From IMG/VR virus record IMGVR_UViG_638341087_000017: DNA of 8,852 nt; one strand, 5' to 3'. A program made the translations under genes and the position numbers. Below, piece after piece: positions 1-5,837 of this stretch (positions within the stretch are counted from its first letter, which is position 1; each line of letters begins with the position of its first letter). The stretch is from a virus. Taxonomy: Duplodnaviria; Heunggongvirae; Uroviricota; Caudoviricetes. Below the pieces are notes generated by a model. The model was not told the origin of the DNA. It did no database searches and was given only the letters and a program-made list of their open reading frames with translations.

Positions 1-72
1 GACAAAACTCCCTATTTAAATATTCATTCCAAACACTGGGAGTCATCACAAACAGCCCCCATACATGACAAC

Positions 73-99
73 AAAAACCGGAGCCAGACTCCGGTTTTT
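73..99 (-). terminator. Bidirectional rho-independent terminator-like hairpin downstream of the last minus-strand gene
   Basis: Plus strand reads aaaaa-ccggag-ccaga-ctccgg-ttttt: a perfect 6-bp GC-rich stem (78-83 / 89-94), 5-nt loop, with an A5 run on one side and a T5 run on the other, so it has a U-tract in either orientation. It lies 15 nt past the stop codon (114-116) of the small minus-strand ORF. Confidence 0.65.
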
Positions 100-113
100 G
101 TGAATCCGTCGGG

Positions 114-383
114 TTACTTCATCCCGCCAATATTTTCCCACGTCCCGTCAGCACGCAGGATTTGCAGCGGTCTTACCACGCACTGTATCTGCTTTTTATC
201 CGCATCCAGTATCACCACCTGCGTGATTACCCTGTCCTGCTCCGGGATAATGCCATTCTCATCTGACTCCAGGATGTCTGCCGGCCCCAGTCGCAGCTGT
301 GCTGTAAGTAACTCCCCGTGTTCACGGTCATCATGCTTTCCGCAACCACACAGACGCTGCATAAGTTTTTTTAGTATGTTCAT
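114..383 (-). CDS. Hypothetical 89-aa protein; C-terminal ~55 residues paralogous to the C-terminal domain of the upstream tail fibre
   Basis: ATG at 383-381 is preceded by a strong Shine-Dalgarno (minus strand CAGGAGAATGAC-ATG). It sits 1 nt after the TGA stop (387-385) of the fibre gene, which suggests translational coupling. Stop is TAA at 116-114. Product MNILKKLMQRLCGCGKHDDREHGELLTAQLRLGPADILESDENGIIPEQDRVITQVVILDADKKQIQCVVRPLQILRADGTWENIGGMK. The segment RLGPADILESDENGIIP...LQILRADGTWENI aligns with the fibre C-terminus [17 protein letters not shown]...[13 protein letters not shown]. The 133-aa track ORF (114..515) is the same frame extended upstream into the fibre gene; the SD-associated ATG at 383 is the more plausible start. 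I do not recognise the N-terminal 30 residues. Confidence 0.6.
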   Translation of the reverse strand: MNILKKLMQRLCGCGKHDDREHGELLTAQLRLGPADILESDENGIIPEQDRVITQVVILDADKKQIQCVVRPLQILRADGTWENIGGMK

Positions 384-384
384 G

Positions 385-1590
385 TCATTCTCCTGTTCTG
401 CCTGTATCACTGCCCACTTCATCCAGCCCCTTAACATCCTGCCACGGCCCGTCACCAAACCTGACCTGCAAATGCCGAAACAGCCCCTGAACCTGTGTGG
501 CATCTTTGGGGTCAAGAAAGGTCAGTCCGGTGATGAGTGCGCCATCTGTATCCGGGAACCAGCCATTGCTGTTTGTCTCAATAATGCTCGCCGGCCCCAG
601 ACGAAAACGGATTTGTGTCTCCCCCGGGTCGCCCTTCGGTCCCTGAGGTCCGGTTGCCCCCACCGGGCCAGCCGCACCTGTTTCTCCTTTCGGTCCCTGT
701 GGGCCTGCCGGACCAGCATCACCTGCCGGTCCCCGTTCGCCGGTTGCCCCGACAGGGCCGGTGTCACCGCGCTCTCCCTTATCACCCTTCGGCCCCTGAG
801 GACCCGCGGGCCCCTGTTCCCCCTTTGGCCCGGGAGGTCCCACCACGGTGGGGATTCGGTTTACGGCCTCTTCCGCCGCTATCCTGCTTTGTTCCGCTGA
901 CTGTGCGCTTTCTGCTGACTCCCGGGCTTTTTCTGTTGCGGTCGTTGCATCCCTGGCTGCATTACCGGCTGCACTTTCTGCCGTCTTTCTTGACAATTCA
1001 GCTTCTGCTGCACTTTGTGATGACTCACTGGCTTTTTGAGCGGCCGCAGAAGCCGAGGACGAGGACGCATCCTCTGACTGCTTTGCAGCGGCTGCACTTT
1101 CTGCCGCCTGCCGGGCTGACTCCGATGCCTCCCCTGCTGAAGTGTCAGCATTTGCAGCGCTCTCTTCTGCCTGACTGGCTGATATGCCGGCATTCCTCGC
1201 TGACGTCTCCGCCTCTCCGGCATTCTTCTTCGCCTCCTCAGCGTGACGCGCCACCTCTTCCACCATCAGTTCAAAACGACGCAGTGCCTCCGGCCGGACG
1301 TCATCCTCCGACATGGCACCGAGAAAATCATTCAGCGTCCCCGGTTGAGAATCTTCATACACGGTGATGGTCCCGGCATGTGACGGCGGGAATCCTTCCA
1401 CCAACAGAATGACGCTGTACTGACCGTACTCAACGTCCATGCTGTAACGACCGGCTTCATCCGGATTTTCTGAGGCCACCGTGTTCACCACCACCGTGGC
1501 GCTGTTACGTCTGGCTTTCAGTTGAATGGTGCAGTTCTCTACCGGTTTTCCTGTGCCGTCTTTCAGTACACCTGAAATCTTTACTGCCAT
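385..1590 (-). CDS. stf: Side tail fibre protein (lambda Stf-like N-terminus) with Ala/Ser/Glu-rich low-complexity region, collagen-like Gly-X-Y tract and a ~76-aa C-terminal domain
   Basis: After the track's leading MN, the product begins [97 protein letters not shown], which matches my recollection of the lambda Stf N-terminus. I place the start at the ATG at 1590-1588 (the track starts 2 codons upstream at a GTG, 1596). Position after lom matches the lambda order J-lom-stf. Stop is TGA at 387-385. Confidence 0.85.
616..840 (-). repeat. Collagen-like tract: 25 uninterrupted Gly-X-Y triplets inside the tail fibre gene
   Basis: Translation [75 protein letters not shown] has glycine at every third residue with no interruption. 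On the plus strand this appears as a Pro-rich mirror frame (track ORF 615..1367). Confidence 0.85.
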
Positions 1591-1601
1591 ATTCACCCCA
1601 C

Positions 1602-1627
1602 AAAAAAGCCCGCCTGAACCGGCGGGC
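1602..1627 (-). terminator. Rho-independent terminator-like hairpin downstream of lom
   Basis: Plus strand aaaaaa-gcccgcc-tgaacc-ggcgggc: a 7-bp GC stem (1608-1614 / 1621-1627) with 6-nt loop. On the minus strand the stem is followed by TTTTTT. It lies between the lom stop (1657-1655) and the stf start (1590). Confidence 0.7.
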
Positions 1628-1654
1628 TGTCATAACACTGTGTTACCTGGCTAA

Positions 1655-2254
1655 TCAGAACTTATAACCGACACCCATGATGAAACCGTCAGTGCGCCAG
1701 TCGCCACTGCCGGAGCCTTCATAAGCAATATCAATGGCCACGGATTCGGTCGGGTTAAACTGCACGCCAGCTCCCCACGCCAGAGACGTGTTGCTGTGGC
1801 GACCGTCATCACTTCCGGTCAGCACGTCGTGCGTTTTCCCCTTGTTGTCAGTTACGCGGAGATAATCCCCGGAGAAAGTCGACACACGGCTGTAAGCCAC
1901 TCCCGCCATCGCATACGCGCTGAACCATTCATTCACGCGCACAGACGGCCCCGCCATTACGCTGAACCAGCGGTTACGCACGGAATCTTCATGCCAGCGG
2001 GTATCGCTGTAACGGGTAAGCTGGCGATTCCTGTCTCCTGCATAGCTGAACGACGTCACCATCCCCAGTGTGTCCGTAAACTCATAACGGTATTTCACGT
2101 TAATCCCGTTCAGTTCATCGCTGCCAGGAACGTTCGTCGAGACATGAAGATACCCCGCGCTCAGCGTTGACTGATGTTCAGACGCCCATGCAGGCGCACC
2201 AGATACGGCCAGACAAATGGCTGCGGACAAAATGGCGGCATAAAGTTTACGCAT
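1655..2254 (-). CDS. lom: Lom/Ail family outer-membrane beta-barrel protein (prophage moron)
   Basis: 199-aa product with an N-terminal signal-peptide-like segment ([24 protein letters not shown]) and C-terminal ...[27 protein letters not shown] ending in an aromatic residue, as expected for an outer-membrane beta-barrel. It resembles lambda Lom as I recall it ([39 protein letters not shown]). SD GAGAGG lies 7 nt upstream of the ATG at 2254. Position immediately after J is canonical. Confidence 0.92.
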
Positions 2255-2320: not shown

Positions 2321-5300
2321 TCAGCTGATACTGATACCTGCTGTGGATTTTTTCATCACCACAACCAGCAGATCGCTGATACTTGCTGTGGGATACCAGT
2401 TATTTACCAGCCATGCTGACACCGAAAACTCCAGCGTCATGTGACCGTGACCGGCAGGCATATCAATAACGCCACTGTAAATCAGCGTATTATCCAGCGC
2501 GGTACGGTTATAAATTTCAGCACCGTTTTTCCGCACTATCAGACGGCATGAGGAGTAAATATCAGTATGCTCTCTCTCATGTTTAGCGCCGCTGAATGCC
2601 ACCGCCGGAATAACAATTTGCCGGTCAAACGGCTGATCGTCATAAACCCTGACGGTAATGGTCCCTGATGGCCACCGCTCCGGTGCACGGGAATCCCGGG
2701 GGAAAGCTTTGCCCACTGTTTTAACGAGATCGCCTTCAATCTGGTTCGCGGACAGTTTTCCCAGAACCCGACAGTTCTCGTTAATCGTGACGTTGTTGAG
2801 CGTCCCGGAATTCGCATTCACGTTACCGCTGATATCAGCATTTCTTGCGGTCAGCCTGCCCTCCGGCGTCAGGGAAAACGTCGGGGGGTTGCCGGATGAC
2901 GTGATACTCACCGCAAACAGTCGCTTCAGGAACACGTCGTTCATGAACAGCTGATTCCCCTGCGCCACAAATAACGGCGTGCTGTTGCCGCTCTCCGGAT
3001 TTATCATCGCGATACGGTCAGCCAGCAGCAGTATGTTGCTCAGTGACTGGCCATCAGTATCCTCAATCCCCGCTCCAATCCCGGCCACATAGGGAATGCC
3101 GTCTTTCGTTTTTTGAACCTTCAGCATGTAAAGTGCAGCAAGGTCATCATTTGTGTCCTTCTGCACGCGCTGTATCTGCTGTATGGTGGCGCTCTGGTCT
3201 TCCAGCGTTTTACTGACCGTCTGTGTGATTTCATTGCGGGTTTCGGTGATGGTGGTCTTCATCTCCGCCATCTCATCCGCAAGCTGGCTGTTGTCTATCA
3301 GCTCCCACAGCCCCTGAGCCAGATGCAGTTTTCCTATTTTTTCCCGAAACAGCCCCAGATACCCTTCTGCATCATTGCTGGCCCGGCCACTGGCTTCCAC
3401 AAAAGCAGATTTCCCCACCAGGTTGACGCTGCGCACGTAAAACCAGAAATCCTTCCCGGGCTTAATGTGCGGGCCGGATACACTCCACTGACTGCCGGTC
3501 CCCAGATAACGGGCAGAGGTTTCCACCTGAGATGTGTCTGCGATTTTTGCCTCCGAAAACCAGAACTCAAACTGTACCGTCGGGTCATACACCGCAAGAC
3601 GCGGGACCGCTGTTATCTGAAAATAGCCCGGTGTCAGCTCAATCGTGGCGGGTACCGCAGGTGCATTAATCCTGAACGTGGTGGTGGCCGGTTCGCCCTG
3701 CTGGCCATAACTGTTAATTGCCCTGACTGTCAGGGTGTATTCCCCGAGCGGCAGACCACTGAAACGGTGCGCCGTGTCTGCGGTGATGGCGGTGGTCACC
3801 AGACGGCTGTCTTCTCCGCTTCCGCTGGTCAGGCGCAGACTGAAGCGCACACCCTTCACCACCCGCGGCGTGTCCCATTTCGCCTGTGCCAGATACTGAC
3901 CGTCAGCCGCGCTCACCTCCACCGTCAGGTGCTGCACTGCCGGCGGGATGACGCTGTTCAGCGAACCGGACAGTGGCTCAAAGCTGGCCCCGTTATCCAC
4001 AATGGCTTCTTTTTCCGGCACATGCTGCACTGCCGTGATGGCAAAGGTACCGTCCGTGTTTTCCCGGATGGAAACACAGCGGAACAGGCGACGACGCAGT
4101 GACGGCAGGGAGAGTCCCCACACACCGTATGTCTCCACGCCATCCGGCAGGGTACTGACCTGTATCCGGTCCGGCGCGGGGTGTGCGGTGATGTCCACAC
4201 TCACCGGCTTACCGCTGCCGTTAATCAGGTTCACCGTGGCGGCACCGGTCTCCGGCAGGGTCACCTCACGGTCCAGTGTCAGGGTGCGGCTGGCGGCATC
4301 GATGGACAGGACACGTCCGCCGGTCATGGTCCCGGCATAGTCGTTATCACAGATTTCAATAATGTCACCGGGTGTGTGACGCAGCCCCTGTGACCCGAGC
4401 GTGAAATCCACCGTCTGCGTTTCCAGCAGTCCGGTCTTTATCACCCACAGCCCGGCACGGTGGGCCTGACCGCGACTGGTGCAACCGAACGCATCCATCT
4501 TCAGCAGGTTGCGCCCGTAGCGCAGTATGGCTTCCGGGTCTTCCACCAGTTCCGTGGAGGTCTGCCAGCCGTTCTGCGGGTCGGTGTAATTCACCTCCAC
4601 CGCCGTGTGGCGGTCCTTCAGGGCGCTGAAGCTGTAGCGAAACCCCACGCCGTTATCATCCACCACCACATCGCAGTTGGTGTACGGCCACACCACATCC
4701 GACGGGCGGTCCTGAACGAACGTCAGCGTCTGGCCGTTCCATACCGGCATACAGCGCATCGCCGAGCAGAAATCACTGAGAACGTCCCACGCCTTACGCT
4801 GTTGTGACAGGTACGCATTAAAGGTCATCCGCGGCTCTGTGCCCCCGAAACCATCCGGGACCGTCTGGTCGCAGTACTGCCCGATGGCATACAGCGCCCA
4901 CTTGTCAACATCCGCCGCCACCAGACGTTTTCCCATGCCGTAGCGCGGGTGAGTCAGCATGTCCCACAGGCACCAGGCCGGGTTGTTGCTGTATGCCGGT
5001 TTCAGGCTGCCGTCCCAGATGCCGCTGTACGTGCGTTTTTCCGGGTCATAGTTTGACGGTACCTGGATGATGCGACCTCGGATATGGTAGTTCACCGTCA
5101 TCTGCTGACCGCCAAACTGCTCCGCATCCACCTGCATCCCCACAATCGCCGTGTTCGGGTAGCACTGTTTCACATCGATGATTTCGGTGTATGACGACCA
5201 GAGCGTCTTATTCTGCAGCTGGTCCGGGGTGCTGTCCGCTGTCTCCCGGACCATCCGGATGTTAAAAGGACGGGGAGGCAGATTATCCAGAATCACCGAC

Positions 5301-5794
5301 GCCAGAAACTGCGAGGTGGTCTTGCCGTTAATGGTGACATCCTTTTCCGTCACCCAGTTACCGTTACGCTGCAACTGAATCAGCAGTCGGACAGAAGAGG
5401 GATTACGGTCGCCCTTTGAGGTGGTCTCCACCAGTGACTGCACCCCGAAGGTGACCCGCAGACGGTCAATGTTCGCTGACGTGATGGTGCGCGTCACCGG
5501 CTTTGCCTTCGTCACTTCCACGCCCAGTGCGGTTTCAGAGCCGGATGACTCAAAACCTTCCGGCGGTGTCTGCTCCTGCTCCCCGGCGCGCCAGACCGCT
5601 GTCACACCATGTATCACAGGATTACCGTCCGTGTCCGTCAGCGGGGTTTTGTTCACCAGGATACTCTGCAGCCCCTTCACCGGACCTTCAATCGGCCCTT
5701 CACCAATGGCGTCAATCACGCTCATCATCTGCGTGGACTTAAGATTGTCCTTTGCCTCTACCGGCGTGTGCGCCTTGCCGCCACCTTTACCCAC
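2321..5794 (-). CDS. J: Tail tip / central tail fibre host-specificity protein J
   Basis: 1157-aa product starting [22 protein letters not shown]... with long stretches that match my memory of lambda gpJ ([100 protein letters not shown]). Start is GTG at 5794-5792, preceded by AGGAGAGGGGG. Size and position (after I, before lom) are canonical. The last ~150 residues differ from my recollection of lambda. Confidence 0.95.
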
Positions 5795-5837
5795 TCTGTC
5801 CCCCTCTCCTGTCTGATGTCTGAATCTGTTTATGCCC

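Follow-up and report, generated by a model that had tools for sequence, protein, structure and literature searches.

In phage lambda, the slot after the side tail fiber gene is occupied by tfa. The lambda Tfa protein, the U/TfaMu protein of phage Mu and the gp38 proteins of the T2 and S16 type are all encoded in this slot, directly downstream of a fiber gene. Here, we analyzed the same slot in a window of 8,852 nucleotides (IMG/VR record IMGVR_UViG_638341087_000017; "the window" refers to this whole stretch of DNA), which represents the tail end of a lambda-like prophage with its genes on the minus strand. The slot is held by a small open reading frame (ORF) of 89 amino acids (aa) located at 114-383 (ATG 381-383, stop TAA 114-116), a member of PHROG 576 that encodes a protein with the phage fiber C-terminal domain (PF06820, Phage_fiber_C, "PfC") as its only domain. 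As for Tfa and gp38, an action at the fiber's distal tip is proposed for the small protein. Unlike Tfa and gp38, it is a paralogue of the very domain on which it would act, and the fiber folds without it.

The fiber encoded in the window displays the EPclA-type architecture described by Ghosh et al. (2012; PMC3368898). The fibers EPclA and EPclB contain the same PfC domain as the small ORF, with core motifs such as RLGP and DG.W conserved, and the PfC of EPclA was found to trimerize alone and to (re-)nucleate the collagen triple helix. The small ORF differs from these fibers in that it carries neither the collagen nor the attachment domain; it is 40% identical to their PfC, and its trimeric state is putative.

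The small ORFs of Sp5 (ORF68), phi24B ('gp59'/ADN68460) and 933W-type phages, all assigned to PHROG 576, are orthologues of the small ORF. They encode 89 aa, are followed by the same hairpin and likewise start 1 nt past a collagen-PfC fiber gene. These phages differ from the window in being short-tailed podoviruses with another fiber N-terminal part and a longer collagen region. ORF68 of the Stx2 (Shiga toxin 2) phage Sp5, which is 93% identical to the small ORF in protein, was described as an 89-aa polypeptide comprising the fiber C-terminus domain, and a reservoir role was proposed for it (Mondal et al., 2016; PMC5155283), the same idea as in an earlier note on the window made from its sequence alone. 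The arrangement is also present in the annotation of Pfam, PGAP, PHROG 576 and GenBank (HM208303). PGAP (NCBI) names the small ORF 'phage tail fiber C-terminal domain-containing protein', and the phi24B GenBank record carries the note 'phage fiber C superfamily; contains a RLGP motif'. The arrangement is therefore not new, having been annotated and published. The earlier note had stated that no characterized function was known for it; this still applies to the function, while the arrangement itself had been annotated and discussed (PMC5155283). The literature on expression of the small ORF gave nothing useful beyond the works cited. New in this work are the one-to-one co-occurrence of the small ORF with the fiber tip, the mobile cassette, the purifying selection, the conserved translation signals and the peptides in a virion proteome.

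Relationship between the small ORF and the fiber tip

The fiber gene (385-1590, minus strand; PF08400, PF01391, PF06820) encodes 401 aa from the ATG at 1588-1590. Its product is arranged as PfN (PF08400), a coiled coil, a collagen (Gly-X-Y) tract (PF01391, about 619-843), PfC (PF06820, fiber residues 327-390, located at 421-612) and a tail of 11 residues before the stop codon TGA (385-387). The earlier note had estimated by eye that the fiber tip and the small ORF share roughly 35-45% identity. In agreement with this, BLASTP aligned residues 29-88 of the small ORF with residues 328-389 of the fiber, with 25 of 62 positions identical (40%), 63% positives and E = 2e-13. Profile searches with both C-termini, which that note had suggested, recovered the whole of PF06820 (cut-off 25 bits, the gathering score): the small ORF matched profile positions 1-64 of 64 with residues 28-89 (123.2 bits, E = 5.3e-36), and the fiber C-terminus matched all 64 positions as well (123.1 bits, E = 5.7e-36). 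PHROG 576, an 89-aa 'tail fiber protein', corresponded to the small ORF over its full length (residues 1-89 covering all 89 profile positions, E = 1.8e-60).

At the DNA level, the two PfC copies are 55% identical when aligned by codons. The longest run common to both is 11 nt (CTGGGGCCGGC; plus strand gccggccccag), one of the short shared runs listed in the earlier note, and a DNA repeat search of the window did not detect the pair as a repeat. The small ORF is an old, diverged paralogue of the fiber C-terminal domain rather than a recent repeat, as the earlier note had supposed.

A second copy of a fiber C-terminus just downstream of the first is likewise present in diversity-generating retroelements (DGR), such as the variable and template repeats (VR/TR) of BPP-1 mtd, and in the invertible cassettes served by Gin of Mu, Cin of P1 and Pin of e14. 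Unlike in those systems, the second copy in the window is an independently translated gene in direct orientation. A DGR was rejected on the basis of the 55% identity of the copies, the distribution of mismatches (A 30, G 29, C 15, T 8) and the absence of a reverse transcriptase from the window. An invertible cassette was rejected on the basis of the direct orientation, with no relevant inverted repeats and no recombinase ORF in the window, whose gene content is limited to tail genes, lom and the fiber gene.

Linkage to the fiber and transfer as a cassette

The small ORF was found to be strictly linked to the PfC fiber in the kind of survey that the earlier note had proposed. Among 50,697 phage records, 296 encoded the small ORF, all with at least 88% identity, and 296 encoded the fiber PfC, with a near-identical organism breakdown. 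The long-tailed carriers include phage 434, 2B8, VT1-Sakai and cdtI, and the short-tailed carriers include 933W, VT2-Sakai (Sp5) and phi24B. In the IMG/VR locus set of 158 sequences (157 loci plus the window), exactly one fiber PfC and one small-ORF PfC were detected in 147 sequences. In total, the set contained 143 directly adjacent pairs, 152 intact copies of 89 codons and 154 fiber PfC ends. The exceptions to the one-plus-one pattern were an IS (insertion sequence)-interrupted copy, a frameshifted fiber, tandem duplications and contig edges. Two pairs of fiber end and small ORF within about 3 kb of each other were present on one contig in locus L129 (2-947 and 3191-4148) and likewise in L075 (153-1773 and 3901-4612); these are tandem duplications or junctions of adjacent prophages.

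The homology at DNA level between the window and both Sp5 and phi24B was confined to positions 56-826, about 770 bp with 89% identity. This segment comprises the distal collagen (from about 826 down), the PfC, the small ORF and a terminator-like hairpin directly 3' of the small ORF (71-101, minus strand; 14-bp stem, 3-nt loop and U-run; dG -31.9 kcal/mol, z = -3.1). Counterparts of the cassette are located at 3451-4327 in L158 and at 2451-3327 in L164, and the hairpin likewise follows ORF68 in Sp5 and its counterpart in phi24B. The hairpin is kept across related loci, and the sequences diverge just past it. Since homology across long- and short-tailed phages is limited to 56-826, the segment is one mobile cassette, which has moved intact between lambda-like long-tailed and 933W-like short-tailed phages.

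Truncated copies of the 3' half of the small ORF were observed 0.7-3 kb downstream of the intact gene in several loci (L105 5213-5386; L112 4369-4563; L116 5213-5407; L144 5214-5408; L052 4975-5169 and 7170-7301; L094 4101-4424 plus 5609-5818), one of the copies being split by an insertion. The analysis suggests that the small ORF and the hairpin serve as a recombination joint for variable cargo past the tail module, for example type III secretion system effector genes.

The position of the small ORF can be occupied by other tip modules. Stx2 phage 86 (L165 9174-12056) has a podovirus backbone as in Sp5 and a different tip cassette at the same slot, consisting of a collagen fiber with a terminal Peptidase_S74 domain, an intramolecular chaperone, then a gp38-like adhesin (PF21721) and then cor. 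No match to S74 was obtained in Pfam for the window fiber or the small ORF, and Gp38_N (PF21721) did not match the small ORF. At a threshold of E<=1, neither Pfam nor NCBIfam nor PHROGs yielded a match of the small ORF to the Tfa (Caudo_TAP) family.

Among 5426 complete Escherichia coli genomes, 698 contained the small ORF with the hairpin, at a median of 11 places per genome. The family is essentially confined to Escherichia, Shigella and Citrobacter rodentium. Across 185,579 species genomes, only four loci were recovered: one in E. albertii, one on a contig that is probably a contaminant and two on fragments of metagenome-assembled genomes (MAG). Of 1.84 billion representatives searched, 90 matched, nearly all of them fragments of the two E. 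coli subfamilies, and a profile search for further homologues recovered three short fragments of a distant family only. A 725-bp contig of Xanthomonas pisi (L160) encodes a small-ORF PfC with 100% identity, and a Clostridiales MAG contig (L162) encodes a fiber-type PfC; both resemble contaminating or mis-binned sequence from an E. coli phage. In a prophage remnant of Citrobacter rodentium (L167 3494-4916), the pair persists in degraded form. The fiber is reduced by internal deletion to 161 aa, the small ORF encodes 78 aa with a 4-residue deletion, and an NleG effector gene is located directly downstream.

Selection and allelic variation

The selection acting on the small ORF was estimated as the ratio of nonsynonymous to synonymous polymorphism (pN/pS), calculated by the pooled Nei-Gojobori method from 100 distinct alleles. 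The small ORF as a whole displayed a pN/pS of 0.16. The PfC part (residues 28-89, 117-302, minus strand) is nearly invariant across alleles, with a pN/pS of 0.066-0.071 at a pS of 0.13. The N-terminal extension of 27 codons (MNILKKLMQRLCGCGKHDDREHGELLT, 303-383, minus strand) is variable, with a pN/pS of 0.36. The fiber's own PfC, with a pN/pS of 0.225, is less constrained than that of the small ORF. The annotated frame had the lowest pN/pS among all six frames, and 21 of its 38 polymorphic sites were at third codon positions. Common variation in the small-ORF PfC was found only at positions 50 and 81. The N-terminal extension varied at positions 3-28, with Cys14 replaced by Tyr in 18 of 143 pairs.

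Near its start, in codons 4-6 (366-372, minus strand), the small ORF contains a run of seven A residues (CTAAAAAAACTT) with no apparent function. In 9 of 143 alleles, a change from Lys5 to Arg interrupts this run.

An antisense ORF of 266 codons (100-900, plus strand) overlaps the small ORF, the fiber PfC and part of the collagen tract. It stays open in almost all alleles with a pN/pS of 0.16, and a similar ORF is annotated in phi24B (vb_24B_37c). It was rejected as a true gene, as the sense frame has the lower pN/pS, the Pfam match and the peptide support. Its open frame probably results from a coincidence of codon positions together with the GC-rich codons of the collagen tract.

Expression signals and detection of the protein

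As already described in the earlier note, the small ORF has its own Shine-Dalgarno (SD) sequence and starts 1 nt after the fiber stop. At the junction (384-394, minus strand), the SD AGGAG (390-394) lies 6 nt upstream of the small-ORF ATG, and the single base C384 separates this start codon from the fiber stop TGA. The junction GGAGAATGACATGAA (TGAcATG) with the SD, which places the small ORF immediately downstream of the fiber gene, has been retained by about 148 of the 151 related loci. A sigma-70 promoter-like site was not found in window positions 1-1700, and a strong intrinsic-terminator-like hairpin with a T-run is located at 1607-1628 on the minus strand, between lom and the fiber gene. 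Given the lack of a sigma-70-like site in 1-1700 and the terminator after lom, both genes would most likely be expressed from the Q-antiterminated late transcript, so that their expression probably depends on late antitermination.

The earlier note had also proposed that phage-particle proteomics be checked for the 89-aa product. In a cryo-EM preprint on phi24B (bioRxiv 10.64898/2026.04.10.717836, Supplementary data 1), the proteome of purified virions lists the peptides VITQVVILDADKK and ADGTWENIGGMK, which are unique to the small-ORF orthologue 'gp59'. The peptides were filed under hypothetical 'Fusion_6159' entries and 'gp59_start', and a single gel slice, of low molecular weight, had more spectra in the fusion row than in the fiber row (25 vs 24). 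The peptides show directly, if weakly, that the small protein is produced and that small amounts of it accompany the virions through purification. A frameshift fusion of the fiber and the small ORF was rejected: Mondal et al. (PMC5155283) found no frameshift signal, and the phi24B authors searched hypothetical fusions and reported none. Inspection of the N-terminal extension revealed no hydrophobic signal-peptide core. A lipoprotein or secreted protein, as an LCGC motif might indicate, was rejected with the hydrophobic core absent and Cys14 variable.

The retention of the TGAcATG junction with its SD by about 148 of 151 loci, the pN/pS of 0.07 and the virion-proteome peptides agree with the expectation of the earlier note that the small ORF is expressed with the fiber, which is very probably the case. 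From purifying selection, conserved start signals and peptides together, it follows that the small ORF is a working late gene and not a decaying fragment. The "remnant" considered in the earlier note is thus contradicted by the 152 intact copies and the low pN/pS of the PfC.

Proposed role of the small protein

We propose that the small protein is a free PfC homotrimer acting on the distal knob of the fiber as an accessory cap or assembly aid, and we assign this reading a probability of about 0.45. The small ORF would be translated from the fiber mRNA by termination-reinitiation coupling through AGGAG and TGA-C-ATG; with such coupling, the small protein would be made beside freshly released fiber C-termini. 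It would form a PfC homotrimer that docks coaxially on the distal PfC trimer of the fiber or transiently co-assembles with it, and would help in assembly or sit on the tip as a loosely attached cap. Its gene occupies the slot of a Tfa or gp38-type tip partner in other phages, and it would be dispensable for plaque formation and lysogenization on rough K-12. Since the cassette is the only sequence common to both virion types around the fiber, any phage-encoded partner of the small protein must be the collagen-PfC end of the fiber or the small protein itself. Co-assembly with the fiber tip, the second option of the earlier note, is the preferred reading; it fits the fiber's own PfC, whose trimerization has been proven (PMC3368898).

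Distant proteins are consistent with such stacking. A protein of 565 aa from the representative search (P0152) has four tandem partial PF06820-like repeats ahead of a collagen tract, and the distant fiber-like proteins P0166, P0176 and P0177 also contain several tandem partial repeats of this type, with 'HIQWRxGxGxW' hairpin repeats in P0177. The core motif of PfC exists elsewhere as a stackable repeat, and the presence of PfC-like modules in tandem within one collagen-containing chain (P0152) suggests that such trimers can stack along the fiber axis. A PDB sequence search found relatives of neither PfC copy.

Several observations weigh against an accessory cap or assembly aid. The full-length recombinant EPclA folds as a trimer when expressed by itself (PMC3368898); it trimerizes and forms the collagen helix alone, so the small protein is not a required chaperone. 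Sp5 ORF68 was classed as a non-essential late gene and was absent from the nine plaque-negative mutants (PMC5155283), so that its loss has no reported phenotype on K-12. In the phi24B proteome, spectra of the small ORF were very few compared with 2267 for the fiber, and the authors left the row as 'Spike or just gp59?' with no mention in the main text (bioRxiv 10.64898/2026.04.10.717836); if present in the virion, the small protein does not come near a 1:1 ratio, and it could also be contamination. Part of the linkage of the pair may go back to a single past transfer, or to a few, of one contiguous block. Co-variation of the small ORF with the fiber tip, which the earlier note had suggested looking for, did not exceed ordinary linkage: the small PfC is near-invariant while the fiber PfC varies at about nine positions, and the mean Cramér's V between variants of the small ORF and of the fiber PfC was 0.23, compared with 0.28 for linkage within a gene. 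The AlphaFold2 monomer model of the small ORF was poor (pLDDT, predicted local distance difference test, 53.5; pTM, predicted template modeling score, 0.30; 11-sequence alignment), with a short helix at residues 3-11 in this low-confidence model. A poor monomer model would not be surprising if the protein is an obligate trimer and its alignment shallow. That the small protein trimerizes, that it binds the fiber tip and that its translation is coupled to that of the fiber are inferences.

A stricter Tfa-like role would be that of a dedicated transient chaperone, which templates or speeds PfC trimerization or prevents mis-pairing of co-resident fibers and never stays in the finished virion. The tfa slot directly past the fiber gene, the coupled-translation layout, the function of PfC as a trimerization and nucleation domain and the trace amounts in virions all agree with it. 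We consider it unlikely, as the recombinant fiber does not need the small protein to fold (PMC3368898), Sp5 can dispense with the orthologue but not with its fiber gene ORF67 (PMC5155283), similarity to the Tfa/Caudo_TAP families is absent and a nearly invariant protein cannot discriminate fiber alleles. The small protein could instead be directed to the host, as a soluble mimic of the tip. A free PfC trimer, released at lysis or present in the infected cell, would then bind the ligand of the fiber tip as a decoy and limit re-adsorption or superinfection. It is a stand-alone copy of the distal domain, to which the phi24B authors ascribe a potential part in receptor recognition, and its strong conservation, as for a conserved ligand, its scarcity in virions and its non-essentiality for plaques on K-12 would suit this function. 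Such a decoy is nevertheless quite improbable: the protein has neither a signal peptide nor a hydrophobic segment, its LCGC lipobox-like motif lacks an h-region and has a Cys14 that is not conserved, a promoter for expression in the lysogen was not found in window positions 1-1700, PfC is not known to bind a receptor, and the small PfC differs from the fiber PfC at 60% of positions, which makes the same ligand unlikely.

According to the idea of a silent or alternative tip cassette (PMC5155283), the small ORF is a DNA reservoir grafted onto the fiber by recombination. Two rare chimeras point in this direction, namely P0063, in which the collagen tract is joined directly to a small-type PfC at the common GPA/CTGGGGCCGGC site, and P0129, which combines the N-part of the small ORF with the C-part of the fiber PfC. 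Enterohemorrhagic E. coli (EHEC) genomes, with a median of 11 places for the small ORF and hairpin, would offer many exchange opportunities, and the recurrence of small-ORF 3'-end fragments downstream in several loci indicates that the region recombines. The swappable cassette offered as an option in the earlier note nevertheless finds little support, and we regard it as very unlikely. The 55% DNA identity and the longest run of 11 nt are too little for efficient homologous exchange, the window has no invertase, inverted cassette or reverse transcriptase, and the mismatches are not adenine-specific. A full-length fiber with a small-type PfC was not found among 176, 245 and 90 database matches, and P0063, the only fusion of collagen to a small PfC, is located at the edge of its contig, where it may have arisen through misassembly. 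Furthermore, a silent cassette needs no conserved SD, ATG or 27-codon extension and no pN/pS of 0.07. Peptides of the free product were detected, and a frameshift signal was not found (PMC5155283). The small ORF is thus probably not a silent cassette. That it has no function and was left behind by an old duplication or recombination event, being carried along only because of its position between the fiber gene and the terminator, would accord with its dispensability in Sp5, its narrow taxonomic range and its decay in prophage remnants such as the 78-aa copy of C. rodentium. This is scarcely credible in view of the PfC pN/pS of 0.07 at a synonymous diversity of 0.13, the 152 copies intact at 89 codons, the conserved start signals, a constraint above that of the fiber PfC and the detected peptides.

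Other features of the window

The nearest DNA matches of the window are prophages of E. coli O157:H7 and Stx1/Stx2 phages, with 97-98% identity. All genes of the tail module are located on the minus strand, in the order H (C-terminal end), M, L, K, I and J (J at 2321-5794). They are followed by lom (1655-2254) and the fiber gene, so that the small ORF takes its position at the late-operon end of a long-tailed prophage.

Implications

Collagen-like side fibers are present on most lambdoid EHEC prophages, including the Stx phages that spread Shiga toxin, and a typical EHEC genome has about eleven places with the small ORF and hairpin. An answer to whether the small protein caps the fiber, aids its assembly or mimics its tip would clarify host recognition by these phages. 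More speculatively, and with rather low probability in our view, the small protein may represent a new kind of fiber accessory, a 'bead' supplied in trans that is a paralogue of the fiber knob and acts as a detachable cap masking or regulating the receptor-binding surface, or as a soluble decoy at lysis. If true, the cap or decoy would have no characterized precedent among Tfa, gp38, intramolecular-chaperone and DGR systems. The small protein would also offer a compact, self-trimerizing module for the engineering of collagen-like and fiber proteins.

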